From Lingula anatina (lineage: Eukaryota > Animalia > Brachiopoda): a DNA stretch of 64,000 nucleotides. The stretch is from assembly GCA_051362555.1 (NCBI GenBank), contig CM120649.1:18862567-18926566 (forward strand), read 5' to 3'. Positions 8,547 to 35,949 of the stretch are shown here, piece by piece; the first letter of the stretch is position 1, and the number at the start of each line of letters is the position of its first letter. A model generated the notes under the pieces. It had not been told where the DNA came from. It saw only the letters and a program-made list of their open reading frames with translations, and did not search any database. The position numbers were made by a program, and so were the translations under genes.

Positions 8547-8602
8547 AATTTTAAAAAACTTAAATGACGTTGCACTGGGAGATGCGTTGGATAGGAGTGG
8601 CA

Positions 8603-9532: not shown

Positions 9533-9679
9533 GGCCCCGTAACTCGAAAGCATCGCGCATTGCGACCGAGCGCAAGCGTCTCGATTCCATAACTCGCCCA
9601 TACTCGCCCCATATAATACATTGTAGCCTCTATGTGATATCGCTATTCGCAGTAGGCGATGCTTTCGAGTTACGGGGCC
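9533..9679. mobile_element. 147-bp PIF/Harbinger-like MITE
   Basis: Perfect terminal inverted repeat GGCCCCGTAACTCGAAAGCATCGC, flanked by a 3-bp CTG direct repeat (9530-9532 and 9680-9682). Confidence 0.8.
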
Positions 9680-10109
9680 CTGGATCTGAATGTGGGTAGT
9701 TGTATTATTAAGATTAAGATACACTGTATCCGTGTTTATTTTATTCCCTTAATAACGAGAGAAGTAACCCTACATATACATAAACATATGAAACACTTTT
9801 AAAAACCTCCACGGTAAACAGCACTGCAACGTTCAGTTCAGCTGCTGTCAGCCTCGCAGATAATATTCCCCGACCACAAATATGTGAGCAAAGTCAAAGG
9901 TAGCTTATGATTTATTTAGCTTAATAAAATGCATGGTACTGCTGTGTTCGATTTCATCAATTTCCCCAGCAAAGGACGTCAACAAAGGGTCTGTCTTCAA
10001 AGGATAATTCAGAGGTTTTTAGAGATTTATTTTAATACAGGTGTCGTTCGTCTTATATACTTATCGGAATATACCTCACATAACACTAACCTGTACGGTA
10101 CTATATCAC

Positions 10110-11940
10110 ATCAGTTCCTGGACTTCCATTCCTAGGACTACCATGTCTGTCATACCGGTGATGCAGATTCTAGGGGTACAATTGTACACAGTAGTCATGA
10201 GTGAAGCTGTAAGTATAAACCGTAGAGGGTCACCCATCGAATAGTTTACTTATACCCGTGTCATCAAATCGACAACGGTCATTAAAGGCAGCCCCTATAC
10301 TAACACTAAAAATAGCTTTTACCCATCAGCAGTACGTATTTTTAATGAGTGTAATGGATTTTAATTATTATTCCATTTTATTTTATCGATAGATCATGTC
10401 GATTTCAATTTTACGCTTTTATGTATAAATATGACAATAAATTATTCTTATTATCATTATTAATGTTGAAAACAAAATATGTGTAGGGAGGTTGTAAAAG
10501 TAAACTGATTGCTGGGAGGTAAGAATAAAATTAATTTAATAACGGGTTTCGATATCTACATTTAACTGTGTACTGACGTTGTTGTGGAAAAAAAGAATAC
10601 GGAGGAAAGAGAGGATTATTAGCACAGTAAGAAAACCTATTCATAACCAGTGGCATTGGAATTACCTTGTTAATTTTTGTCAATAAAACAGATGTCTGCG
10701 ATCACATTAAAATACTGAGTATAAGAAATGCATTTTTTTCTGGAATAGGGCCCTACTGGGTGTGGCCCTGATATAAGCTCCTTATCAAAAATATAATACT
10801 GTTCATCATATTCCTTATATGAGAAATGACCAATTTTTCACAGATGCAGTGTTTCGTTTGACTTATTTGATATACTTCATCTACATAGAAGATGAAACGT
10901 AATTAAAGCGGTTTATTCTGCAGGCGATAAGGATTTGATTTGCAAAACATACGGGTAAATAGAAACTTTTGGCGCATTTACTTCATTAGATATGCGACGT
11001 CGTTGCTATTTTGGAAACGTTTTCCCTCAGCTCTTAAACAGTAATTAAAAAAGCTTCAGATGAAAAAGAATTCACTGATGACAATAAGAAGGAAACAAGG
11101 CCGTTGTCACAGCCCACGGCCAATGTGTCATTCGATATCGAGATCATCCACTCTCAATTAACCGGGTATCCCTAACCCAACACTAATCTGTACCAATCAC
11201 ATCGGAGCCCGGGCTTCCATTCCTAGGACTACCATCCCTGTCATACCGGTGATGCCGATGCTATACCAGGGTACAAATGTACACGGTACTCAGAAGTGAA
11301 GCTGTAAGTATAAACTGTAAAGGGATGCAATGTTGAAAACGAAATATGTGTAGGGTGGTTGTATAAGTAAAGTGATTGCTAGGGGGTAAGAATTAAAAAA
11401 TATAATAAAGGGTTTTGAAATCAATATATAACTGTTGTGACGTTGTCGTGAGAAACCAAAAATAATCACACAGAGAAAAGAGAGCGCAATTTACATAGTA
11501 AGGTATTCATGGCCAAAGAAGCTGAAGATACCTTGTTAAGTTTTGTCAATAAATTTTGTCTGCAATCATATTATAATACTGAGTATAAAAATTGTATTTT
11601 TTTCTGGAATAGGGCCCTGGGTGTGGCCCTGATATAAGCTCCTTATAGTACTGTTCATTATATTCCTTATATGAGAAATGACCAATTTTCCACAGATGCA
11701 GTGTTTCATTAGACTGATTTGATATACTTCATCTACATTTAAGATAGAACGTAATTAAAGCGGTTTATTATGCAGGCGATAAGGTTTTGATTTGCAAAAT
11801 ATACGGGCAAACAGAAATTTTTGGCGCATTCACTTTATTAAATATGCAAAGTCTTTGCTATTTTGGAAACGTTTTCCCTCAGCTCTTAAACAGTAATTAA
11901 AAAGCTTCAGATGAAAAAGAGTCCATCCATTCTGAATTAA
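10110..11940. repeat. Internal tandem duplication (~10110-11160 vs ~11210-11940) within the VWD spacer
   Basis: Blocks such as cttccattcctaggactacca...gtgaagctgtaagtataaac...gagaaatgaccaattttt...aattaaagcggtttatt occur twice here and once at ~3450-4340. Confidence 0.75.
10230..10462 (+). mobile_element. 3' fragment of a Rex1/Babar-like (CR1-group) LINE
   Basis: Reads HPSNSLLIPVSSNRQRSL...KNSFYPSAVRIFNE, followed by AATAAA and a (TTA)-rich tail. It interrupts a sequence that is contiguous in the duplicate at ~11310-11345. Confidence 0.6.
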
Positions 11941-12705
11941 CTTACCCCCCCCCCCCCCCCCACACCCGTGAATTAAATTCCATCTGATACCGACTCTAGT
12001 CACATATTTTCCATTCTATACTGGCTTTCTAGTACTTTCGTAATTTCTTTAGAAAAAATAACATTCTATATAGACTAGATCCCCCCTGTCAGCAAAAGAG
12101 TTAGTAAAAGTTTTAACAGAAGATAGCCCGTGTTTACGTTAGTATCCAACGAGCGCCTGGAGAAGTTGCTTAATTGAAGCAGCTGTTATCGGACCTTGTG
12201 CGAGGTTTGTGGAAAGACGAAAGCCTCTTTTATTATTCACCGCATTACACATGCGGTTGAGACGTAGGTGCTGTGTTCGTATTTTAATTAAGTCTCATCC
12301 TGTTAACTGGTAGGCCTACTGATGATGATCGATATATTGGGGAAAACACTTTGTGTGTGTGTGGAAGGGGGAGGGGGAGGAAGGTGTTGACCCATGTCCC
12401 TCTAATTCTGAATGGGCGTTTACAGGAGGTGTCAGAAATGAGTCCTATTGTGTTCTGGATTTGTTAGGGTTTTTGATATTGTCTTTTAATATGTATATAT
12501 AAATTTAGTCTTAAGCTGTAGGTGTATTAATATAATATTTTTAAAATTCCCTTCGTTTAAAAAATATCAGATCATTTTAATGCAGATCAATTTTCAATAA
12601 AGGGCTCCATATGAAGTAATGGAGCAGACGGTTTAAGGCACAGTAACGATAATGATCAATCAAAGGATGAATGAGAATGGGGGGGGGGGGGAGGGAGAGA
12701 TTATA

Positions 12706-12858
12706 CAGGGGCGGATTAGGCCGTCTTCTGGGTTTTCCGGAAGACAGTCAGATTTGTAAGTTTACATTGACGGGAATCTAATTTTTTCTGTTGGAAGACG
12801 GTCAAAAATGGGGGCTGACTTAACAAAAATAATTTGGAAATATATGGATCCGTCACTG
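12706..12858. mobile_element. Short MITE with CAGGGGCGGATT...ATCCGTCACTG termini, upstream of VWD copy 3
   Basis: Imperfect inverted termini. It is absent from the paralogous site at ~5390 (gagattataaga). Confidence 0.55.
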
Positions 12859-12938
12859 TTATTAGCTTTTTTCGTCAGTAAAAATATAATTGTGAATGCC
12901 ATTATTAATAAACTGACTCCGCACCTTTTCTATATAGG

Positions 12939-13060
12939 CCAATGAAAACGTGACACACGGGACAGGTAGAATTGACGTCAAAATTAAATTTTATCAGAAC
13001 GTTCATTGGTCGTTTCTGTTCCGCCTCAATAAAAATTTAATGAACTTGAGGAGTATAAAA
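12939..13060 (+). promoter_or_regulatory. Proximal promoter of VWD-like gene copy 3
   Basis: CCAAT 12939-12943, TGACGTCA 12973-12980 and TATAAAA 13054-13060, with the same spacing to the ATG as in copy 2. Confidence 0.6.
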
Positions 13061-13110
13061 ATCTCTGCACTGACGACTGTCAAGATAACTTGCCGAAATA
13101 ACTGCTCGTT

Positions 13111-14533
13111 ATGGATCGACACCTTATGTCACTGGCCGTGGCCCTGGTGCTGTTTAACGTTGGGCCTAAGGCGACAGTAGTTGGCGTTACTACTCCCCCA
13201 GTGCTTGAAAAAAGGCTGGAACCCCATTTGGTCATCGCACCGTTGCCAGCAGGACCAGGCGTACGTAAGTAGTAGAAACGGACTTAATACAGGACGCATT
13301 TGATTGCCGACGAAAATGCAACGTATGTGTTTGACACTACTGCTGTTATGCAGCGTTCACAGTGAATCCGACAACTAACAAATAACTCATTTTATTATGA
13401 AATGCAGAGATATAGACAAAATTAAATGGAGCCTGCCTTAATCAGAAAAAATCGATTATTGCAGTTAGTAGGGTATACCCTATAACTAGATTGAATGCAT
13501 TTAAAAAACCAACTCCAAAACTGAGTAATGTTTTTCTTTTACACACTAATCTGTGGCTTCAGAGGGCTATAGGATTATTCCCATCTCTCTGAAAGTCTCT
13601 GCATATGTGGAGTGGAAGGGGAACGGCATAAAAAAGAAATTGTTTTCGCCTTCTTTAAGTCTATACTCGGCAGAGCAAAGACTTGATTCATACCATTGTT
13701 TAAACTATTTGAAGCATAAATGCAAATATTCATGCCACATAACATATGATATTTACATGTAGAAGTGACATCCTCAGTTAATATTAAGAATTTTATGTTT
13801 TTGTAGTTGATGATTCCTACTGTTGGGGACACGGCGATGTACGTTACGACACTCTAGATGACAGACGCTTCCCTTTCAATTCTCCTGTTCATTTGTACGG
13901 CGTTATGCTCCTGCCTTGGATTGGCAATGCATGGTGGGTGATGACTGAACACGAGTTTTTTGGTGGAACAACTAAAACGCGCATCAGCGAAGTATATGTG
14001 AAGTGTCCAAATGCCACTTACTTCAGGGCTACATTGGGGTCGCTTGTCAACTTATATGTGAGTCTTCTTTGTGATACTGTAGTTGTAGGAACAGTAAACA
14101 CTTTTTGCACGAAGTTATTGAAATAACCATACCCCTTATTCTCGTTTCTCTAACAGTCGCAGTCAAAATGTTCATAACATTTACTTCATTGCGCTTTGTT
14201 AATATTCTTGCATTTTGCTTTCAGTATTGGGATGGTGCTGCATGGGTTTCCATCGATGTCGCAGGTCTTCCAGGATTTTTCCCCCCTCCCGGTGGCACCG
14301 CGTGGGTTTCTGGCACAGCGAAATACATCACGATAGATTGCGATATAGTCCCATTCGTACTTGTCTCTGTCTTCCGACACACAGTTAGCATACACGCTAG
14401 CGGCGAGTGGGCAACCGGTGGCCCACACGCAGTACGTGGTATTTGTGCGGACTTCAATGGCGTGCCGGTCAACGACTGGATTAAGTTGTTGGGACCTCCA
14501 CCTTTCCCCGCCTGGACACCTTTCTTAATTTAA
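13111..14533 (+). CDS. Secreted single-VWD-like domain protein, copy 3 (exons 13111-13264, 13807-14057, 14225-14533; 237 aa)
   Basis: Same splice sites and phases as copy 2. Reads MDRHLMSLAVALVLFNVGPKATVVG...YCWGHGDVRYDTLDDRRFPF...RGICADFNGVPVNDW...WTPFLI*. Confidence 0.85.
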
Positions 14534-15829
14534 TCTCGGACGAATTATGACGGATTTCGAACGTTGACGATGATAAAAAAGACACGAACAAGGACAAATG
14601 AAACATTTAATAGGAGAAATAAAATGTATAGGTAAACAGAGACAACAAGACGGACTGAAACCCATAAGAATACGGACAATGAACGGTAACATGGAGAACG
14701 CAAACTGCAATTTCACTTGTTTTATTTAACTAAAATGACTGTTTCTTGGTTCTTTATGGTTCAGATACTGTTTCCTTCAACTATGTTAATTGACTTTCAA
14801 TTACTGTGGAATAATTGGTCAGTTATTAATGCCAATGGGTTCTTTTTCATGCGATCATACTTATACATTTAATTATTTTAGTAATAGACAGGGTGCTTAT
14901 AGCAAATTATTTGGTAGGGCATAAATGTATGTGTCTGTGTAATCTTATTTTCCCATAACATATGTATTGCAATGTAGATTAAATTAGTATTCGCATTTGA
15001 TATATTACAGTGATTCAAATTAAAACATTTTTTCCAATTTTAATTTTAAAAACATCTTTGAACGGACAGAATAGTAATGGTAATGTTTGTGATATTTTGA
15101 GGCACTGTTTTCAAATTTGGAATTCTTCAAGTGAGCGAAATGATAGAAAATGGTGTATTTACCTTGGTATATGCATTTGTATTTATTAGATCTTAATCAG
15201 TTTACCTCTGCTGCATTCTGAACATTGTTTCTGTCCACCATATTTATATGGGATATTGATTAGAATGAATCTTTAGTTATTAGTTATAGCGAAAGACTGA
15301 TTTGTTTCCTGTTCCACATTATTTTACCAAGGCAGGGTGCTTATGTGTGTATTGTTACTGTGAAGACATATACGAGGTTGTGGTGGTATTTTTATTCAAA
15401 CGTAGACTTAATAATTGTTCTTCTGATATATAAGAGGGATTTAAATTTGAAACTTTTCATTGAAATGTAACAATCTTTAATGTGTGGAATATGTGTTACA
15501 TGTAAGTAAGAGGGTTAGAGAGACATTTTGAAGTTCTGTTTGCTTATTTCAAATATCTAAAATGATAAAAAAGATTGTGTATATTTATGAGGTCTAAATC
15601 ATTTCCTTCTTTTAGCTTTGCTTAATATTGAATAAAAGAGGTTAAAAAAAGCTGTTGACGACATTTTTATTCGAAAGGATATTATTGAAAAAGGGAAGCT
15701 ACAGCTATGTTACAATATAGGAAATGATAACTGCCCTTATTATCAACAGGAACCATGCAATGCGTGGGACATGGAAAGTGACCCTATCGGTGCTCTGATT
15801 TTTAAATTGACCACGAAAAGTCATGGCAA

Positions 15830-15867
<38 letters not shown>

Positions 15868-17842
15868 GTTAAAGTGACGCTGCAATGGCAGATAGGCACA
15901 GCGGGAGAGTCGACGACCAAAGGGTTCAAATACTGCCGCATGTGGTATATTCACTGCTTCACTGGGGGTCCCAGAGGAAGGGGCGGCACCGTCGGAGATT
16001 ATTTGAAAGGGGGGGGGTCTGCAGATGTGGAGCCGACTTTCTTCCCTCCACTCCACCCCACCCCACCCCACCCCACCGCCCGCTGAAAGGGCCTCGAAAA
16101 TTTTTAGTATTTTAGAGGGTGAACGGTGCCATTTGGTACGGTTTAGAACTATGTTTCAGCTAGTCAAAATTCTAATTTCAAGTGGGGGCCATTGGTATGT
16201 TTTTTCAGGGCCCCCTGGCACCCCCTCCCCCCAAATCCGTCACTGTGCCATGGGTGAAGGCGTTTGATTCGGTTGGTCGATAAATTTGTTCATGGGAAAA
16301 TTAATTTAAACCAGCCCTCCCCCCTCTCCGCATCAAAGTCTGCTTCATCAAATTTTGCTGCAGCCCAATCAGTCGCCACCAACAGACTCCGCAACTGCAG
16401 TACGACCCTTGATTGTGTTGTTTGTGTGGAATGTAGAATATCATTATTTGCACCACGTTAAGAAGCTGATTAACATTGCTTTGTCAATATCTCAGACTGA
16501 CTTCGGGCATTTTCGAAAGATGGACGGGGAAATAAATGCGTCCAAATTTTGTCCTGCTACTGCAAAATCATACTTTTTAATACTAATTTATGCCGATTCC
16601 ACAACAGCTTTCCGTAGACTAATTAACACATACAACATTGGTCAAAAGGGTTGTCCTACCCCCAATTCCATGTGCTTTTGTCCAGCTACTGTAAATCACA
16701 CTTTTTTAGACAAATTTGGGCTGCAATCACCACAGATGATCCGCAGCCTAACTCCACATGAAAGCAATGTTGCATAATCCCAGACTAACAAATAATCCCA
16801 GACTAACAAATTCGACTCCGCATCCCCAAATGGTCTTCCTGCCTATAAGATATGAACTCATGATGCGTATGCACAATCTCATGGATATCAGAAATGCTGT
16901 ATTGGGTAGGTAGAATCCAAAATGACCATAAAAACGTTATGGAAAAGACAAAGAAAAAGATGAAAATAATTTTTCTTTCAACTTCAATTAAATTTACCAA
17001 TATCTCAGTAAAATGATATACCTGCATTTCAAGCATGCAAGAAAATATAAATAAAACAGTTTATCTTTATAACACACACACAAAAAAAAAGAAAAAAAAA
17101 GCCCATTTAAGATACTCTATGACTAAACCAATCAGTCATTATGTGTCAATTAGAAAATAACACTGCAGGTTCTATGTATGACTTATGGGAGTGGCAACTG
17201 GACTAAATGTTGACTCTTAACGTAATCCGTTGTTTTTAAGCGAGTGAAGGAATCAAAAAATTGCATGCATATCTAGAGAAGTAGATGCGTTATGAGATCG
17301 TGACAATATGCGCTTTTTCGGATTTAAGGTTGGTTTTTCGGTGAAATGCGAGCATTTTTATCTTGGTATGTATGCCAAATAATACTCTGCTATCCTCTCA
17401 CAACACATGCCTTGAACACCTGTCTCTGACGCATGAGGCTCGGATGACAATGTATTTGATCAACATTTTGCTTCACAGAAATCCGCTAATGTCAATAACT
17501 ATATAATACACAATGTACCACGGTACATTTAACGTTACTAACACATAGGATTACATCTAGCTATGCAGGTAATATATTATTTCATATTGCAGATGACAAA
17601 AAGTATAAAAATAACCTAACATGGTGTCAGTATTTTTTTTTTTTTTTTTGTTGAAGAATAAATGGTACGTGTTACAAACGGGTGATTTTGCACGTGTTTC
17701 CACAATTGAACCAAGTTCTTTAGAAGGTGTACTGGTACTTAACGGGCACTTTAAGATTTTAAAGCTTTGTATCATTGCGCATGAAATAACTCAAATAGCT
17801 TACAGTACTTTAGATTTTAATTAAAGCTTGCGTTACCGCTAA

Positions 17843-17892: not shown

Positions 17893-18074
17893 GTTTATTA
17901 TATCCACGGCCCACTGTATAATTCTGGTAGAGCTAGACATCCAGTTCTGACACAAGTGGCTGACGCACATTTTGTACCCTAAGGAGTTACCGTTATTATA
18001 CTTATGTAACTTAAGAGTTATAATAAACTTTCAAGCCCGATAGTGGTTCTGGTTTTGAACAGCAGAACTGAGTA

Positions 18075-18510
18075 TGACATCGTGGGATGACGGAGGACTG
18101 TTCGATTATAATTGTTATGATGTTTAGTTCTTTTCCTTTTGAATAAGTTTTCATATTAAGATCTAATTTAATTTGATATTGCATTTATACAATTCTGCTA
18201 TATATTGTAGTAAGGGTAATGGTAAATATTAAACATCAGGCTTCAAGTTGAACCCCGTTAAATTATTCTTTCACTACATTGGTTAAAATTCCTGTTAAAA
18301 ACCTTGAAAAAACTCGTGCGATGTACTGCACAAATAAAAATACTTCTTTTTCCAAAATGACAATTTTCGCCTGGCAATTATTCTAAACCCGTATATTTTC
18401 AGAGCGTAAACAGGATCAGTTTGACGATGTAAAAACAAGGGTTCCCAGGCAGGCAATGATAACGATCTGATGCAGGTGAATTTTCTAGTGAACTTGTCAC
18501 AAACAGGTGA
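18075..18510 (+). pseudogene. Decayed remnant of a mytimycin-like gene (exon 2 tail and exon 3)
   Basis: ggatgacggaggactgttcgattataattgttatg resembles exon 2 of the intact genes. 18403-18475 aligns with exon 3 but has CAA>TAA and TGC>TGA stops and is 73 bp rather than 74. Confidence 0.7.
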
Positions 18511-18812
18511 AGTACCGCGGTTTAATGAAGCGGAAACGAAAAGAAATCGCCACGCTTAATTCGGCAAATGGAACATTTGGAGAAGACTATATTATCAAGA
18601 CCGTAACCAGTTATTTCAAAGGGAGGAAACTTTTTTTCTGAGAAATCTTCTTAAACATCGATCAACTTTTACCCAAAACCAACCTTTCACCGGTAAAAAG
18701 GTCTGTTCGAACTCCCCCCCTCCCCAGGGTCTGGATATGTAGGGTGAAGTACCGCGGTTCAATGGAGCGGAAAAGAAAAGAAATCGCCACGCTTCATTCG
18801 GCAAATGAAACA
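18506..18812. repeat. ~70-bp direct repeat pair (from 18506 and ~18743)
   Basis: ggtgaagtaccgcggtt(t/c)aatg(a/g)agcggaaa...gaaatcgccacgctt(a/c)attcggcaaatg occurs twice. Confidence 0.8.
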
Positions 18813-19874
18813 GTCGCACACAAATTAAAGGGATAATAACTCTTCGTTTCGGCAAAAAAAATGAATTTTCCTGGAGTAAACAACAATTTTCCCATACTTA
18901 CCAATGGTTAATGAATCCATTTTTACATTCAAAGTTAGTCCCTGTTTTTTTTCTACAAAGTTTGGTTTTTTGTTAAAATCTTTTAAGAGATTTTAACAGA
19001 GTATAGCCATCAATGGAGGTCACGTGGTCTAAAGACGAGCTCAGATATCAGAATAATAGCTATAACTGCTGTTTTGTGGTAAAACAGAATATATTATATT
19101 TCTATGAGTTATGCACAATGTTTTTATTGTGAAATGTAGATCTCATACGAAGAGTTACTATCCCTTTAAGCAAATTGTCTCGATTTATCGGAAAGACAAG
19201 GATATGAAATTGCTCCCGCTTTATTCAACAAATATTAATCAGGGTTTACGCTAAATAGCTGTCAGCCGAGCGGGAGCGAAAGTTAATTACCCCCTTACAG
19301 CTTGTAGTAGGCGGGACGGACATTGAAGCTGGATTATCTGACAGTAATCTAGTGAGACACCCCCCGGGGATAGATCGATCTAAAATCTATGGGAATCCAC
19401 CCATAGACACTGATGCACGTATGATATGTTAACCTCTTGTCTGATTGGCTGGATGGTACATGACAGAAAGCAACAATGCCGTGTGCTTATGTATTTATGA
19501 TATGTACAGTTTCTACCGTCAATTCACTGTTTATGTACTATGCGCACGGTGAGCCAGACAAAATTCTAACTTATGTGCCTTTACTAATACTAGTGTTAAA
19601 AGTGTTCATTCTTTAGATGGTGTAAATGACGCGTTTATTTTTATACTGACATCGTTATACATGTAATACATAACAAGAGGAGTTCGAATGATACAATGTT
19701 TTTTTTTCATGTACCATATTACTAAGATATACTCCTAGCTAATTATGTTTGAATATTCATTTCTGTTATTTACTTTTAAGAATTAACGGAGTTACATAGT
19801 TAATACTACATTTGTATTATATTATATTTTCATATTTGTCACTTTAAGTGATCATCTGAATTACATTTCAGAGA

Positions 19875-22796
19875 ATGGCTGGACATCTTGTTGCTGTAAC
19901 TGTACTTGTAACTGCCCTTTTGTCAGTTACTTTCGTAGAGAGAAGCGAAGAAGTTTGCTGTCACAATTCGTTTTTTCATCATGATCTTTGCAGTGATTGC
20001 ACCAAGGTAGGTTTACTGATACTATTATGTCCGTGTTCCACACCAACTACGAATTCCACGAACCGGCAGAGGTTGATACATTTTAGAAATTGCGAGGAAT
20101 CTTGAGATTATGCACACTTCTGGTAGAAACCCTGTCTGCCTGGGCTTTACTTCCAAAATGGATGTTCAACATAGAGCAGCTTTAGTACTTGTCTTAGAAC
20201 TACAGTATGAACATCAGATGGTGATAAATATAATGACAGTCAATGAAAACACATCAGAAAACTTTTTTGTACTTTTCTACCGAGAATCGATTCCAACCAT
20301 ATAAACGAGTACAATTGCACTTGTTTGGCCATAAGAGAGTGGGCTGACCACTATATCATATTTCACATATTTCACACAAAAACTGTTATTTTCTAATGTG
20401 CCACAGGAACTTGAAATATTATTTGAGAAATAAATGATGCGTTTTCATTGGCACCCAGGGTCGAAACTTTTCAATCGATTTCACGATCTCTCAAAAATGG
20501 CATGAACTGAATGAGAATAGATAAGAATCAGTAAAGAACTTGACAAAAAATCTATCACGTTTTAACCAAGAATCCTGGGATTTATCGATTCTTGGCGGTT
20601 CGTGAAATTCGTAGTCGATGTGAAATTGGGGCTTTATACAAAAACCATATGGCTCATGACCAACGAAACTATCGTTCCACGTGCGCACTCGGATTAGCAG
20701 ATGAACACGTCTGGGATCATGTTATCCCACCTGCCCTCGAGTCGGTGTGTCTGAGCGTTAGTAATTTCAGCTATTACCTCTTAGACCATTGATGTAGGAA
20801 GTTAAAACTTTGGGGATTGATAGAAGGATGTACACGAGCATTTCAAAATTTTAGTGCAAAAGGGCGCTGGTCTATCTCTGGGGGATTGTTAATTCTTTAT
20901 TATTTTCACATTGTTATTTCTGTGTACTCCCCCTAGACCATAAGAGTAAGAAACTTGAAACTTAAGTAATTGGTAGATCTGTCGTCGGGGTTGTGCATGG
21001 ATATGACAGAATTTTAGAATGTCTGGAGGTTGGGCTGGCCCTGGGCGGTGATTGATTCTAATTTTTTCTCACATCGTTTTTTTGCTGACTTTTAATCCAT
21101 TGCAATTTGGAGTTGAACATTTGATGTTTGATGAACCTTCCTTCAGGAATGGTGTTAATATTGTGGATATGAAAAATTGAGCAGTTCTGAAATAGTTGTT
21201 TTCCAGACAACATGCATTTGATAATAAAAACCCGCCAACCCATATCACATTTTTAATCTGAAGCTTAAATGTGCAAGAGTTTAAAAAATCTATTTGATGA
21301 AACAAAATACAATATTTTAGCCAAAATAAATTAGAAAACAATCTGCTCTTTGTAATAAAATGCGCTCATGTCAGTGTCACATTTCTGATGTCTGAAAAAC
21401 GGCATATATCAACCAGTGTCTAAGGTGAACAGATACATATTATTATTATTATTATTATGTTGATTAAAGTTATGAAATCAAATCTTTCGAGTGTCTGATT
21501 TGTTACTGCAGATCTACGGTGAGTATTGTGGAAAGGGGAGCTGCAACATATTTGGTTGTGCCTGCGTAGGAGGATGCAAAGAAGACTGTTCGCCTGTAAT
21601 TGTTATGCCGCCGTAAGATATTGTGTATATTGTATGCTATTATATTCGGCATGTCATATATAAATTTAGGTTTCAATATTATATTTAAACTATCCTGCTG
21701 TCCAGGGAAGTGAGAATATCGGTAACTATTCGTCGTCAGACTTTAATTTGAACTGTATTCAATGAACCCCATAAAATATTTTGTATTATTGACAACTTTG
21801 ATTAAATTTGTGTAAAGAACATAAATATAAAATATATATGGAATATAAAATACCCTTTATCAAACTGGAAGTTAATGTGAGGCATTTATTTTAAACTCCT
21901 AATGTATCATTTCAGAGGGCAAACAAGATCGGTTTGCAAATGTCAAAACAAACGTGCCCTAGCAGACAATGCTGACGAAACTGATGCGGGTGAAGTTTTT
22001 AGTGAAACCCACAAATAGGAGAGGGGGCTAAATTCTGGATTTAATGGTAAATTCAGGGATGAAAAATTATCTCTTTCCAAAAATATTCAGAAATGACGCA
22101 ACCCATTAATTTTGTGTTTGCTCAGTGTATATATTTATATTGTCCATATGTTGGTTTTCCTTATGGTGCTGTAACACACTGCTAGAGGTTGGGCTTGGTA
22201 ATTTTTGGTGTGGATTTATTGGATTTTTTTCTCATTTCTTTTGGCAAATGTTCAGGAATGATGCAAGCCATTAATTTTGTATTTCATTTTGTGTGTGTTT
22301 GTGGGTGATCCGTTGGTGCGGGTGGGGGTGAGGGGTTAGGTGTTAGATACCTGCTACCCCTCCCCCAAACCAACTACTGCTTAGTGTATAGATTTATATT
22401 GTACATATGTAGGTCTTCTTCATGTTATACACTGCAAGAGGTTTGGGTATATTTGTATCTTAAAACCCCTTCTACATGTACAGAACATTTAAGCGACAGA
22501 TAAGAAAACCAATTAGCCCTACTGAAGTGAGTAAAACAATTAAGAGCACATTTGTTTGTTAGCTTAAAGAAAATGAGGAACTGTAAATAGTAGAAATAGT
22601 AGAATACGTTGAGATATATACGGACATCTTTAGTTTTCCTATCCCTTGTATTAAATTAGTAACATGCTGATGGGTATTATGCAACAAGTTTTATAAATCT
22701 GGTGTATTTTCAGAGATTGATGACGTCATACCAGTCGCCGTTATCACAGAAGCCCCGGGCACACATCATAGTACACAAGATATCAACAAGTTTTGA
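19875..22796 (+). CDS. Mytimycin/Diedel-like 12-Cys secreted peptide precursor A (exons 19875-20006, 21512-21612, 21916-21989, 22714-22796; 129 aa)
   Basis: GT-AG introns with phases 0, 2, 1. The product is MAGHLVAVTVLVTALLSVTFVERSEE-VCCHNSFFHHDLCSDCTKIYGEYCGKGSCNIFGCACVGGCKEDCSPVIVMPPGQTRSVCKCQN-KR-ALADNADETDAEIDDVIPVAVITEAPGTHHSTQDINKF*. AATAAA at ~22856. An acceptor just before the ATG implies a non-coding first exon (candidate donor 19549). Confidence 0.85.
20028..20632. mobile_element. Old Harbinger-like MITE in intron 1 of peptide gene A
   Basis: The termini ccgtgttccacaccaactacgaattccacgaacc / ggttcgtgaaattcgtagtcgatgtgaaattggggc are degenerate versions of the TIR at 39591/41895. The paralogous insertion is at ~24409-24797. 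Confidence 0.65.
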
Positions 22797-23571
22797 AAAC
22801 ATCTAAAATGTTGAATGGCAATATGCAGTTTGTATTCAGAGACTACAGGCACATAAATAAAGCTTTTAAGTTATTAAAATAATGGATTTGGATGTCAGTG
22901 AGATATATCAGTGAAAAAAGCGTTGAATTGGATCTGATAGTTTGATGATTTGCCGGACACAATTGTTTCATATACATAAAGGAAGAAAAAAACAAACATT
23001 TCTTTTGATACAATTTTTCAGCCCGCTTACAAACAATTCATTAAAGCATCAAATATTGACTTTTTTCTTTAGATGACATTTACATTGGATTACATTGTAG
23101 CATATTACCTTGATAAATCTGAGGTATAGCTGTTTAAAGCGTACACATTTAATCATGAATACAGCACAGCATTCGTCTGCTCCACCTTCAACTATCACAG
23201 GTGTACGAGTTTTTTGGGGTAAGGTCCTTTGGTGTTTAATTATTATTTCATGTTTATTATTGATGTCATATACATAATGTACATACATGCACATCACTTA
23301 ACATCTTAAGCTGGATTAAGCCTACATGAAACATTACGGGACTACATTCTGCTTTACTTTAATATGTAGGGGACATAAGCAAGAAATCGCTTGATTGCGC
23401 CTTTGTTCGTTTGTTATACATGTACAGTTTATATATAGTAAGGACGAGGGGTAACCTTCGTTAAACATTATATTTTATTTGTTTATTTATTATTTTATTT
23501 ATTTATATATTTATTGTGAATTGGGGAGAGGGCATGTGCCAGATGTGTTAGCTGTGCTAGGACTTAGGCTA

Positions 23572-23612
<41 letters not shown>

Positions 23613-24266
23613 TTTTTTTTTTTTGCATCCTAATGCCCTTTTGATTAATAGACCACAAATATTAAAATCGATCTATCCCCCTGGGTAGTCTCACTAGATT
23701 GCTGTCAGCCTGACCGACTTAAAAGTCTGTCCCACCTACTAAAAGCTGTAAGGGTGTAATTAACTTTTGTGCGCGCTCGGCTCTCGGAAGCTGACAGCAA
23801 TTTATTTGTTTTGACATCTGGACAATGCACACCGTTCTCCTGTTTCCTTTCTTGAAAAATAAGGGGACTTAACGAATATACATGATATCTACTGTTCAAA
23901 ATTACTGTCTCTCTGTAAGGTGATATAATGGCATTGAATCGTTCACATTTGTCAGCCTGATGTTTTTTAAACATTGTTAAAGAATAATTTATTGGGAAAA
24001 TAGGGGGATGGCGTGTTGCTGATTTAGGTGTCAATTCACGGTGAGTCAGACTTCTTATCAAATAAATTTTTGGAAAAAAAGAAAAAAAACTATTCAACGC
24101 CAAGGATAAAATACAATGGACTCAAAATCTATTCGTATTAATTACAGGAAACAGAAAAACATACTGCCAGCATCTGTCAAATCAAGCGTGCACGGCATTT
24201 GTATTACGTTGTACTTTCATATTAAAACTATCGCTTAAAACGATCATTTGAATTACATTGCAGAGA

Positions 24267-25443
24267 ATGGCTGGTCATCTTGTTGCTGTAATTGTACTTG
24301 TAACTGTTCTTTTGTCAGAGAGAAGCGAAGAAGTTTGTTGTCACAGTTCGTATTTTTATCATGAACTTTGCCTTGATTGTAGCAAGGTAAGTTTAACTGA
24401 TACTATGATGCCCCTGTTCCACACCAACCACGAATTCCACGAACCGCCAGGGGTTGATACATTTTAGAAATCGTGAGGTATCTTGGGATTTTGCACATTT
24501 CTGGTAGAAATCTTGTCTCTGCTTGGGCTTCACTGCAAAATGGATGTTCAACATAGAGCACCTATAGTACTTGTCCTACATGTAGAACTGGAGTATGAAC
24601 ATCAACTGGCGTTAAATAGAAATCTGGGTCGAAGTTTTTGAGTCGATTTGACGATCTCTCAAGAATTGCATGAAATGAATGAGAAAAGAGAAGAATCAGT
24701 TAAGAACTTTAAAAATTATCACGTTTTAACCAAGAATCCTGGGATTTATGGATTCTTGGCTGTTCGTGGAATTCGTAGTCGGTGAGGAATAGGGGCATTA
24801 TACATAAACCATATGGTTCATTCCCAATGAAACTATCGTTCTACGTACTTTGATCTAACGCTGCGGGGACCCCTGCTGAATGCACTCGGATTAGCTGATA
24901 AACACGTCGGGGATCATGTTATCCTGCTTGTCCGCGAGTCGATGTGTCTGAGCTTTTGTGATTTCAGTCATTTCTTCCTAGATCATTAGATGTAGGAAGT
25001 TCAAACTTTGGGGATTGATTAGGGGATGTACACGAACATTTCAAAATTTTAGTGCAACAGAGAGCTGGTCTGCCCCTTGTGTGGTCGATTCTTTATTATT
25101 TTCACATAGTAATTTCTGTGTACTCCCCCTAGACCATAAGAGTAAGAAACTTGAAACTTTAGTGATTGATAGACCTGTCATCAGGGATGTGCATGGACAT
25201 GTCATAATTTTAATTTCTGGAGGTTGGGCTAGCCCTGGGCGATGGTCGATTCTAATTTTTCTCACGTTGTGTTTTCTGCTAATTCCTTGGCCATTACATT
25301 GAACATTTGAATTTTTAAAAGACCTTTCATCAGGTATGTGTTTAGGATTTTCAACCCATCGGACACTACCATTTGGACACTATTAACATTGTGGATATGA
25401 AAAATGGAGCAGTTCTGAAATAGTTGAGGTGTGCGACCTCGTA

Positions 25444-25488
<45 letters not shown>

Positions 25489-26649
25489 TTAACTGGAATT
25501 TTGAAATCAAATCTTTTGAGAGTCTTATTTGTTACTGCAGCTCGACGGTGAGTATTGTGGAAAGGGGAGCTGCAACATTTTTGGTTGTGCCTGCGTAGGA
25601 GGATGCAAAGAAGACTGTTCGCCTGCAATGGTTATGCTGCCGTAAGATATTATGTATATTGTATGCTATTATATTCGACATGTCATATTCTAATTTAGGT
25701 TGATATTATACTTAAACTATCCTGCTGTCCAGGAAAGTGAGAACATCGGTAACGATTCGTCGTCAGATTTTAATTTGAACTCTGTTAAATGAACCCCATA
25801 GACTGATTCCATCATAACGTTTATTTAACGCAGGATTGTGTATTATTGACAACTATGATTAAATTTGTGCAACTAAAATGGCCTTTTTCAAAATGCCCTT
25901 TATCACAATTAATGCGTGGCATTTATTTCAAACACCAAATGTATCATTTCAGAGGGCAAACAAGATCGGTTTGCAAATGTCAAAACAAGCGTGCCCTTGC
26001 AGACAATGCTGATGAAACTGATGCGGGTGAAGTTTTTAGTGAAACTCACAAATAGGCGAGGAGACTAGATTCTGGATGTATTGAAAGGCAAGGATGAGGA
26101 ATTGTCTCTTTCCAAAAATATTCGGAAAAGGCGCAACCCATTTATTTTGTATTTCATTTTGTGTGTGTTTGTGGGAGATCCTGTGGTGGGAATGGGGGTG
26201 AGGGCAGTGTAAAGATTTATAGTGTCCATATGTTCGTTTCTTCCTAGTGCACACTACAAGAGGGTTTGCGTTTGGGTATACTTGTACTTTAAAAATCCTT
26301 TTACATAACATTTAAGGCCCCAGATATGAAAATCAGTTAGCCCTATTGAAGAACACAACGTTAGCTTATATAGAATGCGGAACTGTGTATTGCATAATTA
26401 CTGTAGATTACTGTACAAGAAATAGTAGAACATGTTGGGATTAGTTTGCTCAGTACTTAATAATTATGCAACAAGTGCTATAACAATGGTGTACTTTCAG
26501 AGATTGATGACGTCATATCCATTGCTGTTTTTACAGAAGCTACAGAAACACACCATAGTGCCCAAGACGACGTCAGGGTTGGAAAATACTTAAAAGTGTG
26601 GAATTGCAATATGCAGATTTTATTCAGAGTGAACATGAATAAAGCATAA
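24267..26649 (+). CDS. Mytimycin/Diedel-like 12-Cys secreted peptide precursor B (exons 24267-24386, 25541-25641, 25953-26026, 26501-26649; 147 aa)
   Basis: Same exon phases as A. Reads MAGHLVAVIVLVTVLLSERSEE-VCCHSSYFYHELCLDCSKLDGEYCGKGSCNIFGCACVGGCKEDCSPAMVMLPGQTRSVCKCQN-KR-ALADNADETDAEIDDVISIAVFTEATETHHSAQDDVRVGKYLKVWNCNMQILFRVNMNKA*. Confidence 0.85.
24409..24797. mobile_element. Old Harbinger-like MITE in intron 1 of peptide gene B
   Basis: tgcccctgttccacaccaaccacgaattccacgaacc ... gttcgtggaattcgtagtcggtgaggaataggggca. It sits at the same position as in gene A, so it predates the duplication. Confidence 0.65.
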
Positions 26650-27729
26650 TAATGAATTTAAATGTTAGGGAGATAAATGAATGAATAAAACATTAAATCG
26701 GATCTATGATTTATGATTTGTGGGACGCGGTTGTTAGAGAAAGCTTAACATATCTATTAATTATTCATTTCCATTTTTTTCAATAAAACTGTTTGAAAAC
26801 AAAGTGGAGCATATCAATATTTTATGTTTTGTACACGTTAATTTCAAAACAACCTGATATTTTAAACGATATCACATGCAAGAACATGTTATCAACTTCA
26901 AATGAGTTGATAAAGTTGTCACAATCGTTAGCTATGAGTAAGAACAGATAGCATAGGAGCTAAGAGTAGAAATTTTGCATTGATTCGGAGGGTGAGGTCA
27001 ATTGAATACCGCTATTAAGACAACTAAAATGAAAGTCTTTTTATCCTGTGATTGGGTTAAAATTACCATATATAAATTACATAACTTTTAATCATACATA
27101 TCCATAATTTCTGTTTATTATGCAAACAAGTATTACATTTTCTGAAAACAACTTTTCAGCTACTGTTCTTACCATTGTTTTATCATTGGCATTTGTAAAA
27201 AAATACTATATTTCGTTCACAAAATCGATGAGATGTACGTTTACTGTGATTACATGCAACAAAAAAGAGGAGTTGAATCTCGATATGATGGAAGGTTTTT
27301 GTATTTGAGGCCCTCGCCCACACAAACCCAAGTCCAACAGAGAAACATCCAAACCCAAAGTTTTACAAGGGGTCGAGAAAATATATATAGCATCGTCAAG
27401 GATAATTACTTTAAAAATGATTGCCTTGCTGTGATGCACATTAACGTTAAAGTCGATTAAACTCTAGACACGAAAAAATTAATTTAGTGCCGGGGGTGAA
27501 AAATGACCTCCACCCACCCTGCGGCCACATGCTTACACTTTAAGAAAGAAACACCCGAAACAGCCACAAAAACATTTCCTTTGATACAATTTTACAGCGC
27601 TCTTACAAACAATTCATTAAGGTATCAAAGACTGACTTTTTTCTTGGGATGACATTTACATTGGGTTACATTGTAGCACGTTACCTTGATAAACCTGCGG
27701 TATAACTGTTTGAAGTGTATATATATTAA

Positions 27730-28137
27730 TTAAACCTTGGAAATCCTAACTTAAAGGTCATACATATATACCCTGCATATATTTAGCCATCAAACATGTG
27801 CTACTGCTAAACACATCCAGGCTAAAAGGGTGTACCATGCTTAGGTGCAAAACATGCTTGGGAGCTAAATGCGTTGAATAAATCTGACAAAGCAAGCACT
27901 TGAATGTTTTTACAGTCTACGTTATAATTGTGCACCTGTGTTTTGTACCAAAAATAAAAACATTTCAGGTCATTTTAATGTCTTTTCGTGCAAGAATGTT
28001 GTCTAACAACTGAGGTTGATACAATGTTGTTATCTGACACTGATCCAAGTTTCAAATCCAACTTTTATCCGATGTCTTATCAACGTTATGGCTCAACGTT
28101 GTTTCAACGTTAAAACAACGTCATTTGCCCGCTGGGT
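27730..28137. mobile_element. Right arm of a non-autonomous DNA transposon (terminus ...caacgtcatttgcccgctggg)
   Basis: Nearly colinear with 44620-44965. It interrupts sequence that is contiguous in the paralogous spacer at ~23140-23170. Confidence 0.65.
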
Positions 28138-31287: not shown

Positions 31288-32604
31288 TTACATGTGCATC
31301 ACATAGAACTGGGTATAATCAGTTGGACTTATTGTCAAATTTTTAAATACAACATGGAGCGGCAGGGCTAAGCTGAGCTTTTTGTCGTTTCCAAAAGGAA
31401 TATCCCCTCCAACAATCATTGCTAAGGCTTGCCTATTCCTTACATCTTCATGTCTGGTTGTTATAATGGATCCACTATCGCCTGCTTTCGAGAAAGCATT
31501 GTCACTGCCGTCTGCCTCAAAGGCCATAAAGGTGAATGGTCCATGCAATATGTCTTGCTCTCCAAAACCATGAAGTTTCATTTTAGTACGAAATTTTGCA
31601 TTAAATAATTTTCCAAATGTTGTCTTTGTCCCAGCTCCAGACTTTTGTACTTCGAGACCATGCTCAGTGAAGACACGTATATTGCATGGGATCAATTCGT
31701 GGACAAGAGCTTCATTTGTTATTTTAACACAAGTAACATCAACAAAGTACGAACTATTGTCCACGTCGGACCACTCTTTATACGTACTTGAATGGACTTC
31801 TCCAACTATTTTAGGTGATTCATTTTCTATACAAAATACATGTAATGGTGACTCGGTTTCAGATACACGTGCACTCAAAAGCACATCCAGACAATGGCAA
31901 CACGTGATACCATAGCATTCCCTTCCAAAACCAAAACATAAAAATCCTCCCATGGTGCCTGACCTTGGAGAAGTCACCTCTGCATACCCTTGTGCGTGAA
32001 GCTTCATTAATCCGTCTTGGCCCTCAGGTAGCTCATATAACTCAAAATTTAAACTACCCCTTTTCAGTTTCCCAAGTTCTCTTTCCACTTCATTTTTCTT
32101 ACCGTAAAGAACATTTGCATGCGCAATGTTGTCTACGTCGTCATACCAATAGCTGCTTACATCAGGACATCTGAAATAAAACAGCGAGCTTTTATCCGTC
32201 TGCACATTACACATGTTTATACTTTTTTGACACTGACAGAATAGAAATTTACTTATTTTATTAACACTCAGCGTAATAGGAAACTGAAAAAAGAAACACA
32301 GAGTTATAGGGTTTGGTAACAAGTAAATGAAAGGTGAGTCTAACGTGTCTAGGTATTTTGTGACATCAGTGGGAATGTCAAGTGTTGGTTCCGATTTCAT
32401 TCCCATGAGGGTCTTGACTGATGCAACTGGGGGTTCCGATTTCATTTCCATGAGGGTCTTGACTGATGCAACTGGGGGTTCCGATTTCATTTCCATGAGG
32501 GTCTTGACTGATGCAACTGGGGGTTCCGATTTCATTTCCATGAGGGTCTTGACTGATGCAACTGCCCCCTGGGCATCGGTAGCACTGATCTGATTTTGTT
32601 CTCC
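31288..32604 (-). CDS. Terminal exons (32604-32345 and 32170-31288) encoding a 15-aa repeat region and a Nal1/Ssy5-like trypsin-fold serine protease
   Basis: Motifs GTMGGF...YGITCCHCL (His), FVDVTCVKI (Asp), VQKSGAGTKTTFG, FSKAGDSGSII (Ser), ALAMIVGG and LALPL. There is no signal peptide or IVGG activation N-terminus. A phase-2 GT-AG intron at 32344-32171 happens to be open in frame, which is why the ORF track merges the two exons. Confidence 0.8.
   Translation of the reverse strand, partial: GEQNQISATDAQGAVASVKTLMEMKSEPPVASVKTLMEMKSEPPVASVKTLMEMKSEPPVASVKTLMGMKSEPTLDIPTDVTKYLDTLDSPFIYLLPNPITLCFFFQFPITLSVNKISKFLFCQCQKSINMCNVQTDKSSLFYFRCPDVSSYWYDDVDNIAHANVLYGKKNEVERELGKLKRGSLNFELYELPEGQDGLMKLHAQGYAEVTSPRSGTMGGFLCFGFGRECYGITCCHCLDVLLSARVSETESPLHVFCIENESPKIVGEVHSSTYKEWSDVDNSSYFVDVTCVKITNEALVHELIPCNIRVFTEHGLEVQKSGAGTKTTFGKLFNAKFRTKMKLHGFGEQDILHGPFTFMAFEADGSDNAFSKAGDSGSIITTRHEDVRNRQALAMIVGGDIPFGNDKKLSLALPLHVVFKNLTISPTDYTQFYVMHM
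32387..32564. repeat. 45-bp coding minisatellite, ~4 units (KTLMEMKSEPPVASV on the - strand)
   Basis: ggttccgatttcatttccatgagggtcttgactgatgcaactggg is repeated almost perfectly. Confidence 0.95.
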
Positions 32605-34135
32605 CTAATAAACGAATATAAGTTTATTTATATGATAGTATAGGGGTATAATGTTTATAATCTAGAACACAAGAACGCATCTAAAAATAATAAGTACTGG
32701 TACATTATCATATACTTGTATCTATATAGGAATCATGTTGTTGGTTCCTCGGCTGTTTACAGGGACTTTTGAGGCAATAGTTACATGCAGTATACATGTA
32801 GAAGGAAGCCATTCATCTGGTTATTGGATGTGTATTTTCAGTTATTTTGATAAATTGATTGGATGGATTTTCTTTCATTAGTTTTATTCTGTTACGTGCC
32901 AAAGTGTGTTTGTTCGCTAAAATTATATTTTGTGTATCTTCCAATCTACAGCGCTTAAGCGTTTGTTTCATGTATACTGGCCACGCATCCTCAACAGCAT
33001 CATCTCACAGCTGCTTGTCCTGTTGTAAGCAAACGGTAGGGTGTCCATCCTACCACGATATTGTTAGTGAAAATCAAAATGGCAGCAGATGGTAGAAAGA
33101 GCAGCATGATCAGTATATTTCCGGTATAGAAGTAATTAGTCTAACTGAAACCATTTAGAGCTTTAATTTGTCTATTGAATCTAGACCTGATATTTCGTTA
33201 GCCATGATCCTATTATCTGATTGTTTGACATTCGACTAATGCTTGGTGAGCCACTTTGCTACTCCCATGGACCCCATAGTGGAACGATTTCATTTTACTT
33301 TTTGTTATTATTTGAGAAAAAGAATTGCATTCTATCAGGTTAGATCAAATAGCATAAATATTAGTGATTCAAATCAACTATATTTTTCATTGGTGTTTAA
33401 TTGCATGTTTATGGAAACAGAAGTCTATATTGTGATTGAGTTTTAAAACTCTGCAAGTCATAAGTCATATCAATAGAAATAGCAAGGGCCGCTAAAAACG
33501 GTATGGAAAAGACAGGAAAAGATATGGTAAGTTATGTTTTTTTCAAAAGAGACAGACCTTTAAGGAGCATCACATATAAACAACTTCTACTAGTTTCCTA
33601 TATGACTAAAAAAAGTCGACCTGCCAAGGAACAAACTGAGCAAATCACTCGATCAGCCATAAAAGAGCTTTAGATTGTTCCTTTCTTTAAATTGTTGGTC
33701 AGAAATTAAATCTTCTTATCTAGCCTACTTTTCTGCCCCATTTATAGCATAGAAAGCTAGCAGAAAATCCGTTCAAACATCATTTTTCAGGTAATATTAA
33801 GCAATGTCTTTTGGTTATTCTCTTAGTTGTACTATACTTTATGCTGGCATCTTGTTTTGTTTTTTTTTTTTTTTTTTTTTTTTTTTTGGCAAAAATGACT
33901 TCACGTTCATCTAAAAATGAAATATACATACCTTTCAGTAAAACAATTACGCTGTAGGCAAAGCATTCATCAAAATAAATTAGATTGGTTAGCTAGGTGA
34001 TACAAAAAAAATTGAAAAAATGTTTGTCAAAGTTCGTCTACAGTTAACCAGCTGTCAGTTATCTCTGATAATTGAGTCGTTTGCCCTTAATTTTTAATAA
34101 AATCGTTATGGATGGTTATGTACCTCATCGCTCTT

Positions 34136-34166
<31 letters not shown>

Positions 34167-35432
34167 CACACACAAACACACACATATGAAAATTCGTGCA
34201 CATTTCGGCTGTATTAGCTCTCAAATGCAGCTCGAATGTAGTTGGAAAACTAGGAATAACGATAATGCTGTCAGAATGCAGTCTGACTATTTAGAATACA
34301 CTTCAAATGGCGTACGAGTTTAGTTCAATTGCTGGCTGAAATATGATTTCGGCAGCCATCGAGATGCATTCGAGTTGCATTCCGACTCATTTTAGCAGGA
34401 TTTGAAGTGTCTTGCCCTTTCAGTTCTCCCTCGAACGACATTCTTGCTCATTCCACCTCTAATGTGACGGGGCCTTCGGAGAGACAATTCTTTGTAAGTT
34501 CCTAGATATTCGAAGTGCATTCTAAACTTTATGAGTGCATTCCAAAAATTTTTACCCATGCTTGTGGCCGGCCCGAATATTTTGCTCATGCTCAAAATTT
34601 TCGAATTGCATTCCAAGCGGAGAAATATCGATTGGCATGGTAATTGTATTTTAACTGCACTATGAGTGCATTCTAAATATTCTTAGGGCATTCCAACAGC
34701 ATTCGAAACATTCTGATTGCTTTCGAGGGAAAACTGAAAGACACTTGTAGACACTTGTAGTTGGAAGTTGTTATCTGCGTTCGTTTCATACTGTTGTTTT
34801 AAAACTAAACAGAATCTTCCTGGCGAGCTTCATCGAAAGAAAGAACCTACGCGTTATAAAAGATAATCTAAAGCGGTAATGGTGTTGTGGAGGTGTAGCC
34901 GTGGACAACATGGGTCGGGACTAAAACCATGCGTACCGCCAGCGCTCACGCTGGTGGCACTATTAGCATTAACCCCAAAGGATCTGTAAGCCACATTAGA
35001 TAGAAACAAAGTCTCTTACTTACCTTACTGCTTATTGAAGGTGGGATTGGTACAGGTATATCTGAAATTTAATTATATTGTTTTAGTCGGAGCATAAGAT
35101 CCAATTATTTTTATAAAATTTCAACAAGCTATAACCCAAATCAAAGGCTGGTATTTCTATTGCCGTGAACGTGATAAGTCAATGATGAAAAAATGTCTGG
35201 GTGAAGGGCAAGGCAGTCCCAATTAAAAAAAAATGGTCACAGTTGAGTTTGGGTAGGTAAATTTTATGCCAAATGGGTTTCAAACTTTCATCAAATAAAC
35301 CTTCCTTGTTTCTCTTACAATTTAGGTTTATGAGATTCGACGTTATGATTCGTCTACGGATTGAAATCACTTTCTGATCTGAAGAAATCTTTTCGACAGA
35401 TAACTTCCACGTGCGTTAAAACTTTATACAAC

Positions 35433-35483
<51 letters not shown>

Positions 35484-35949
35484 TAACAGTTTTCCTGTAA
35501 ACTTCAGCCAGGTGTATCCTTTCCAAAACCAACAAGGAAAGTAAAGATGTGTCAAGTTGTTCTTGCATTGTATATGAAATTTGTGGATTACCTTGTCCAA
35601 TATTGCCAGCCTCCATCTCCTATACAGATTTAAGAGAGAAATGACCTCTGTAGTCAATAGAGTAATTAATACGGTTACCGTTGAGGACTGGATGTTACCA
35701 TAAGTTCCAAGATTAAAACGCGCGAGAGGTCTGGCGAGTGTGATGCTAAAAGAGGGATGCTCTTCTATCCAAAGTGTAGCTCTAACTGCATTCACATGAA
35801 AGTACATTGTTACAAGGGTAACCATACGTTAAATTTTACTATTACATATAAGAACTAGGACACCTATCATTGTGTAAACTTGGGATGTGAGAAGTAGAAT
35901 ATTGACATACCTATGTCACCTTTGTGTCACCATTAATATACTCAAACAC

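Follow-up and report, generated by a model that had tools for sequence, protein, structure and literature searches.

The window analyzed here, a stretch of 64,000 nucleotides from the brachiopod Lingula anatina (contig CM120649.1; GC content, ~37%), contains a tandem pair of genes for small, cysteine-rich, predicted-secreted peptides of the Diedel/mytimycin family. Self-alignment of the region revealed that both genes lie on the forward strand and that each has three coding exons. The first coding exon of gene 1 (19875..20006) encodes a predicted signal peptide, a CC pair, and a C-x-D-C motif; the second (21512..21612) encodes the core of Diedel subdomain SD2, including an Asn-Ile-Phe loop and a GGC motif; and the third (21916..22018) encodes a CxC motif, QN, a KR dibasic site, and an acidic tail of 20 residues that ends at a TAG stop codon. 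Gene 2 has the same arrangement, with a signal region four codons shorter in its first coding exon (24267..24386), the SD2 core in its second (25541..25641), and CxC, QN, KR, the acidic tail, and TAG in its third (25953..26055). The signal peptide call is based on the hydrophobicity of the N terminus, for which the best 12-residue hydropathy is 2.85 in gene 1 and 3.48 in gene 2.

All four introns between coding exons have a GT donor and a CAG acceptor, and joining the exons in frame yields products of 111 amino acids (gene 1) and 107 amino acids (gene 2). Each product has 12 cysteines in the order CC-x9-C-x2-C-x7-C-x4-C-x4-C-x1-C-x3-C-x3-C-x14-C-x1-C, followed by QN, KR, and the tail. An earlier note, made from the letters of this DNA alone, had predicted such a spliced layout of signal peptide, 12-cysteine pattern, KR, and acidic tail, and both in-frame products bear it out; the junctions that it proposed for gene 1, 20006/21512 and 21612/21916, are GT-AG joins that keep the frame. 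A shift of the third exon by one base loses that frame. Other acceptors that would give a cysteine-rich second exon lie no more than 30 nucleotides away, and the CAG sites chosen are those common to both copies. Evidence for the outer exons comes from relatives: exon 1 by itself matches the family profile (hhalign expectation value [E], 6.8e-5), and exon 3 is identical to the C terminus of a Lingula homologue at 12 of 25 positions.

These genes stand beyond chance because a six-frame search of the window finds the C-x4-C-x4-C-x-C motif at just two places, one in each gene, because their second exons score well on the Pfam Diedel model (see below), because exons are more conserved than introns, and because non-synonymous change is proportionally rarer than synonymous change. 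Between the two copies, the three exons are 89, 94, and 96% identical and the introns 80 and 86%. The coding sequences differ by 9 synonymous and 14 non-synonymous changes, giving proportions of 0.133 (pS) and 0.055 (pN), albeit from small counts. The 26 codons of the core show no amino acid change at all, and KR plus the tail differ by four synonymous and no non-synonymous changes, leaving the 20-residue tail identical. The mature N-terminal half holds 9 of the 14 non-synonymous differences and only 2 synonymous ones. Mytimycins, the antifungal peptides of mussels, also have a central block under purifying selection (PMC8004829), a pattern that the core in the window echoes. The two genes are intact tandem duplicates belonging to the Diedel/mytimycin family.

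Exon 2 alone scores 30.0 bits (gene 1) and 31.9 bits (gene 2) on Pfam Diedel (PF13164), for which the curated cut-off is 21.3 bits, a check that the earlier note had called for. The likeness to the Diedel core that it had pointed out is also seen in the best Protein Data Bank (PDB) match of exon 2, which is Diedel itself (3ZZO; E, 7.6e-6; 14 of 18 core residues identical). Structural work on Diedel defined SD2 as residues 25 to 28 plus 60 to 89, held by four disulfides, and described Asn77-Ile78-Phe79 as an exposed hydrophobic tip and proposed binding site (PMC3307722). In a Drosophila Diedel-like protein, cysteines 26, 27, 60, 71, 76, 81, 83, and 87 fall in the SD2 ranges, and an RGD motif lies within the SD1 insert. 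From Drosophila Diedel (CG11501; 3ZZO/3ZZR) the window peptides keep every one of the eight SD2 cysteines as well as the Asn-Ile-Phe loop, but not the ferredoxin-like SD1 or its RGD; neither precursor contains RGD or KGD. Moreover, the CC pair is separated from the C-x-D cysteine by 9 residues here versus 32 in the Drosophila Diedel-like protein, and the window peptides carry four additional cysteines, a KR site, and an acidic tail, none of which Diedel has. Judged from the eight retained cysteines, the insert shortened to nine residues, and the missing RGD, the window peptides would be knots of SD2 alone to which four cysteines have been added. Across the family, sequences with the cysteine that follows C-x-D tend also to have one beyond the core (37 of 43 versus 19 of 79, although these sequences are related and thus non-independent), which suggests that the two pair. 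Minimal knots are found in flies too: Drosophila serrata and D. bunnanda have SD2-only Diedel relatives of 67 to 68 amino acids with eight mature cysteines.

Structure comparisons were made with a model that AlphaFold built for the Lingula core nearest to the window peptides, from a 50-row alignment (mean predicted local distance difference test [pLDDT], 81; predicted template modeling score [pTM], 0.53). Diedel was the top match for this model with Foldseek (probability, 0.93; E, 0.14; 32 columns) and the best of 48,161 with VIA-align (Z, 3.5; 51 residues), both of which are low scores. In the ESM Atlas, a structure search with a low-confidence model of the Lingula protein returned only template modeling (TM) scores below 0.4, a feature search found a Diedel cluster at 0.91, and exon 2 had no usable match. 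Exon 1 had no sequence match in the PDB, and a word-index search of exon 2 plus its in-frame intron flank against longer proteins gave two candidates, of which nothing scored. Weak matches to cyclotides (kalata; E, 0.6 to 2.7) were rejected as products of cysteine and glycine composition.

A profile of the two second exons, searched against 1.84 billion representative sequences, gave 13 matches at an E of ≤0.001, of which 12 fit Pfam Diedel at an E of <0.001 and 11 of those score above its cut-off. The top four of the 13 are uncharacterized Lingula anatina proteins (E, 2e-9 to 1e-5). A 14-row profile extended the set to 316 proteins, and the 120 of these that were listed include matches from Lingula, amphioxus, basidiomycete fungi, Chlorella, mites, an aphid, and flies, together with many unnamed records; 46 of the 120 carry a Pfam EF-hand, as counted from the table. 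Viral relatives of Diedel were not among the sequences obtained. Among 139 sequences (137 fetched proteins and the two window products), the core is present in 127, the loop reads N-[I/V/L/M/F]-F in 125 of those 127 cores, and GGC is present in 118. The additional C..CxC is confined to 13 sequences: besides both window products, it is carried by eight entries of the Lingula cluster and by three EF-hand proteins from unnamed records.

The closest relatives are in Lingula itself. In a tree of 34 rows, made of the window products and 32 fetched proteins chosen mostly for having names (a further one was left out because it has no core), the window products and seven Lingula proteins (XP_013388053, XP_013389171, XP_013407114, XP_013394455, XP_013392241, LOC106180166, and one named "protein Diedel") form one clade with support of 97/90; most deeper branches are open. 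By itself, this grouping would point to a lophotrochozoan, perhaps a brachiopod, as the probable source of the window. The same Lingula proteins also score highest in phmmer searches with whole precursors (47 to 77 bits for gene 1). The seven share with the window peptides the signal, a type II array of 12 cysteines with GGC, CxC followed by KR, and a short tail. They differ in the x9, x7, and x14 spacings, and the net charge of the core is positive or zero in most of them. Some of their tails are basic, and at the other extreme XP_013392241 ends in a degenerate EF-hand; an intact EF-hand is missing from all seven and from one unnamed, longer variant. No identical or near-identical protein was returned for the window peptides in these homologue searches, and no described function was found for any of the Lingula relatives. 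Also related are fungal and amphioxus proteins (Tricholoma, Infundibulicybe, Sistotremastrum, and Branchiostoma) that combine a signal, CC, C-x-D, the core, and an acidic linker, as here, but unlike the window peptides have intact EF-hands and, in the named members inspected, 8 to 10 cysteines. The layout of signal, Diedel core, and EF-hand pair, which is that of mytimycin, thus occurs in basidiomycetes, with an expansion in Infundibulicybe, and in amphioxus.

The comparison with mytimycins relies on PMC8004829. That work describes an array of 10 backbone cysteines plus optional pairs, with type II having 12, and the cysteine order of the window peptides, compared by eye, equals the type II array of its Table 1, in agreement with the likeness that the earlier note had pointed out. 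Like the window peptides, mytimycins have C-x-D-C, a CNIFGC core, a dibasic site, an anionic extension, and a conserved central block. They differ in having an EF-hand pair of 75 amino acids in place of a 20-residue tail, in mostly having a multibasic run rather than a single KR, and in usually being cationic (pI 7 to 9 in mussels [PMC8004829]), whereas the window peptides are neutral to acidic.

The earlier note had gone further, proposing that these genes combine the frame of mytimycin with the GGC core of Diedel and make up a new subfamily linking the two. Neither proposal held as stated. GGC as a graft specific to Diedel was rejected, as it is found in 118 of the 127 cores and, by eye, in 10 of 14 mytimycins of Modiolus, Perna, and Perumytilus, which is 10 of the 39 in File S4 of PMC8004829; moreover, 16 of the 18 residues of the Diedel core are found in the mytimycin Mphi_4 (by eye, from the supplement of PMC8004829). 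Nor are the two genes a unique bridge, given that the seven Lingula proteins share their layout and fall in the same clade. A real link appears to join mytimycin and Diedel, but as a property of the whole family that is independent of these two genes. They look like unremarkable members of a branch that Lingula database entries, unnamed as such, already represent.

Also reconsidered was the earlier suggestion that an acidic propeptide replaces the EF-hand. The part that stands is the absence of an EF-hand: exon 3 has no Pfam match, hence no EF-hand was detected in it, and a profile of the EF region from 46 homologues, run in the three forward frames, found none within ~1.4 kb after each gene. 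The idea that an EF-hand loop lies frame-shifted directly beyond the stop codon was likewise considered, and it was not supported. Replacement is less secure, because EF-less forms already exist (the mytimycin Perpur_1, for instance, is given as having no EF-hand in PMC8004829) and the tail may itself be a remnant. The 20-residue tail has a net charge of −5, and its last stretch of ten residues ahead of the final ones fits the entering helix of the family EF-hands weakly, the score being reached by 247 and 256 of 5,000 shuffles. Among six Lingula tails in the same test, one was reached by 99 of 5,000 and the rest were not significant; by profile, one Lingula tail keeps a degenerate EF-hand. 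That the tail is the stump of a truncated EF-hand, retaining its entering helix, is plausible but unproven.

Both genes may extend beyond their coding exons. A non-coding first exon is suggested because an acceptor ends 3 nucleotides ahead of each ATG (at 19871 in gene 1 and 24263 in gene 2) and because a donor-like motif of 15 nucleotides, 14 of which are identical between copies, lies upstream of both. The candidate donors of this exon are at 19545..19559 (GT at 19549) and 24037..24051 (GT at 24041) on the forward strand. The first exon is non-coding in mytimycin genes as well (PMC8004829). Downstream, a forward-strand block that runs from an acceptor to AATAAA (22714..22861 in gene 1, with AATAAA at 22856; 26501..26643 in gene 2, with AATAAA at 26638) is 77% identical between copies. 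This block may be a 3′ untranslated exon or an alternative last coding exon. In the latter case it would be joined to a weak donor that falls within the tail sequence (21990 and 26027) and is the sole donor-like site seen at the same place in both copies. When the block is read as coding, substitutions over the first 68 nucleotides fall 5:1:10 by codon position (P = 0.016, uncorrected), but this bias fades and is not significant over 80 or 92 nucleotides. We favor the tail as the earlier note read it, because homology to a Lingula protein extends beyond the weak donor; the mature peptide is unchanged under either splice model.

What might these peptides do? We propose that they are predicted-secreted, KR-processed, near-neutral defense peptides that bind a microbial, probably fungal, target through an exposed Asn-Ile-Phe loop and that they are inducible or restricted to certain tissues, a reading that we judge about as likely as not and the best of those considered. 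After removal of the signal peptide, six disulfides would form, with eight cysteines building the SD2 knot of Diedel while those that remain (42, 70, 85, and 87 in gene 1) staple a C-terminal hairpin. Convertases process dibasic sites, and cleavage at KR would take off the acidic tail and leave, by analogy with mytimycin, a product ending at QN: a disulfide-knotted peptide of 60 to 65 residues and ~7 kDa. The mature region carries little or no net negative charge (0 in one peptide and −1 in the other over the CC-to-CxC stretch), which makes specific binding more probable than charge-driven lysis of membranes. The invariant core would hold the binding loop, while the variable N-terminal loop, with its two to three histidines and acidic residues, might tune specificity. 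The type II array, the dibasic site, and the acidic extension are features of antifungal mytimycins (PMC8004829), mytimycin has been described as strictly antifungal (PMC5484132), and Diedel-like proteins occur in caterpillar venoms (PMC11335235).

Several observations weigh against this proposal. The window peptides have a Glu where relatives carry Ala or Gly before X-CC, which blurs the signal cleavage site, and the predicted isoelectric point of the mature region is 5.8 in one and 5.1 in the other (charge, −2.5 and −3.6). A scan of both upstream regions for kB and STAT motifs found no clear common site pattern. The antifungal activity of the family would seem to be known from the mussel peptides alone; in Drosophila, by contrast, this domain acts as a cytokine or as a ligand in the matrix (PMC6072105 and PMC9116668), and in a fungus it is the most expressed gene of the fruiting body (PMC6980582). 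Finally, expression data are discouraging. Four of nine raw RNA runs, chosen by species label and of unknown tissues, were mapped on positions 18000 to 28000 using 5, 6, 23, and 29% of each run at 92% likeness, with no control gene in that stretch. In all four, depth was 0 over the exon bins of gene 1 and no more than 0.3 over those of gene 2, and reads piled up on repeats only. The earlier note had set junction reads as a test in advance; none of the proposed junctions, 20006/21512 and 21612/21916 among them, was seen among the 15 joints listed of 50 for the four partly sampled runs, so that the refuting outcome named by the note was obtained in this sample. We weigh this as weak evidence, because the tissues are unknown, the stretch has no control gene, and mytimycin transcripts are rare and their genes subject to presence/absence variation: in mussels, the transcripts were seen only after cDNA normalization (PMC3039611), and the presence/absence variation is described in PMC8004829.

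One of the repeats that drew reads, at 18825 to 19400 upstream of gene 1, collected thousands of them at 90 to 99% identity in all four runs. It belongs to a family common in transcripts, and part of it recurs inverted at 23667 to 23782.

A rather unlikely alternative, though the one that survives best, is that the peptides are Diedel-like cytokines, with a knot that engages a receptor of the host and thereby dampens immune signaling or cell death. The peptides retain SD2, which is where Diedel is most conserved, along with its proposed binding loop, a non-cationic surface suits a ligand better than a lytic peptide, and Diedel limits apoptosis (PMC6072105). Against this, the sole Diedel activity to have been mapped, integrin binding, requires the RGD that is missing here (PMC9116668), and the precursor layout is that of mytimycin, not of Diedel.

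We consider it improbable that the genes, though intact, are duplicates that stay silent or see little use, or that presence/absence variation removed them from the sequenced individuals. The near-zero exon coverage in four of four runs would be explained, and precedents exist among mussel mytimycins, for which PMC8004829 reports some clusters unexpressed in every transcriptome examined and 18 pseudogenes among 106 variants. Yet both copies keep the frame, the 12 cysteines, the splice sites, and AATAAA despite ~20% intron divergence, pN/pS is ~0.4 overall with core and tail free of amino acid change, and the rarity of mytimycin transcripts, together with the limits of the runs noted above, could account for the silence. 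Least probable is a non-immune secreted role in matrix, shell, mucus, or metal binding, which would fit the spread of the family across animals, fungi, and algae, the fruiting-body transcript mentioned above, the place of Diedel as a basement-membrane component (PMC9116668), and the histidines and acidic residues of the variable loop, but processing of the convertase type and a tandem duplication in which a surface loop varies seem better suited to defense, as does, more weakly, a TIR-domain gene nearby.

Beyond the two genes, the comparison bears on the history of the family as a whole. PMC8004829 restricts mytimycins to Mytilida, describes their structure and backbone disulfides as unsolved, and treats the EF-hand as a likely later acquisition from a pre-existing gene. 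The fungal, amphioxus, and Lingula proteins conflict with the Mytilida-only range, and an ancestral EF-hand is plausible because fungal and amphioxus proteins with core plus EF-hand, as well as the Lingula proteins, exist. From the visible core identity and the cysteine order, the mytimycin core would correspond to SD2, the disulfide-knot subdomain of Diedel; no named mytimycin is among the 137 fetched proteins, so the tree includes none. It is possible, and we suggest it only tentatively, that mytimycins, Diedel, and a large group of unnamed proteins from fungi, algae, amphioxus, mites, and brachiopods make up one old SD2-knot family with an ancestral EF-hand pair, in which the window genes represent a stripped-down, non-cationic branch whose knot alone is active. 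If this is true and the bare knot has antifungal or immunomodulatory activity through its Asn-Ile-Phe loop, one mechanism would serve both the unsolved mussel antifungal and the virus-captured fly cytokine. Diedel SD2 (3ZZO) would be a solved template for the mytimycin core, with Asn-Ile-Phe as the candidate active loop, and these natural, minimal, non-cationic versions would allow a test of whether charge or loop drives activity. We found no paper that names both Diedel and mytimycin; journals behind subscription, where the mytimycin genes were first described, and domain-database entries for mytimycin lay outside the search, and the link may be known there.

Other features of the window flank this pair. 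At positions 1 to 16700 on the forward strand, a unit of ~7 kb is tandemly triplicated and encodes a small protein of ~240 amino acids with a predicted signal peptide; its exons lie at ~5891-6044, 6625-6875, and 7034-7341, with a copy at 13111-14530, and 54-365 holds the final exon of a third. Motifs in the second and third exons resemble a single von Willebrand D domain, with no matching Pfam hit, and TGACGTCA stands upstream of both complete copies of the unit. On the reverse strand, 31288 to 45833 is possibly one TIR-FN3-serine-protease gene. Its exons include one for a TIR domain (E, 2e-20), a pair for FN3 (E, 2.5e-9 and 7e-7), and a large one in which TCCH and GDSG motifs occur and which matches trypsin-like S64/Nal1 models weakly (E, 0.02 to 0.06); this last exon had no homologue among longer proteins. 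Two open frames, at 39954-40751 (forward) and 63156-63737 (reverse), resemble, by eye, remnants of the C termini of reverse transcriptases from long interspersed nuclear elements, with no matching Pfam hit. A bias toward TACATGTA is found in several marine invertebrate genomes, and TACATGTA is the commonest mixed 8-mer of the whole window, with 22 non-overlapping sites.

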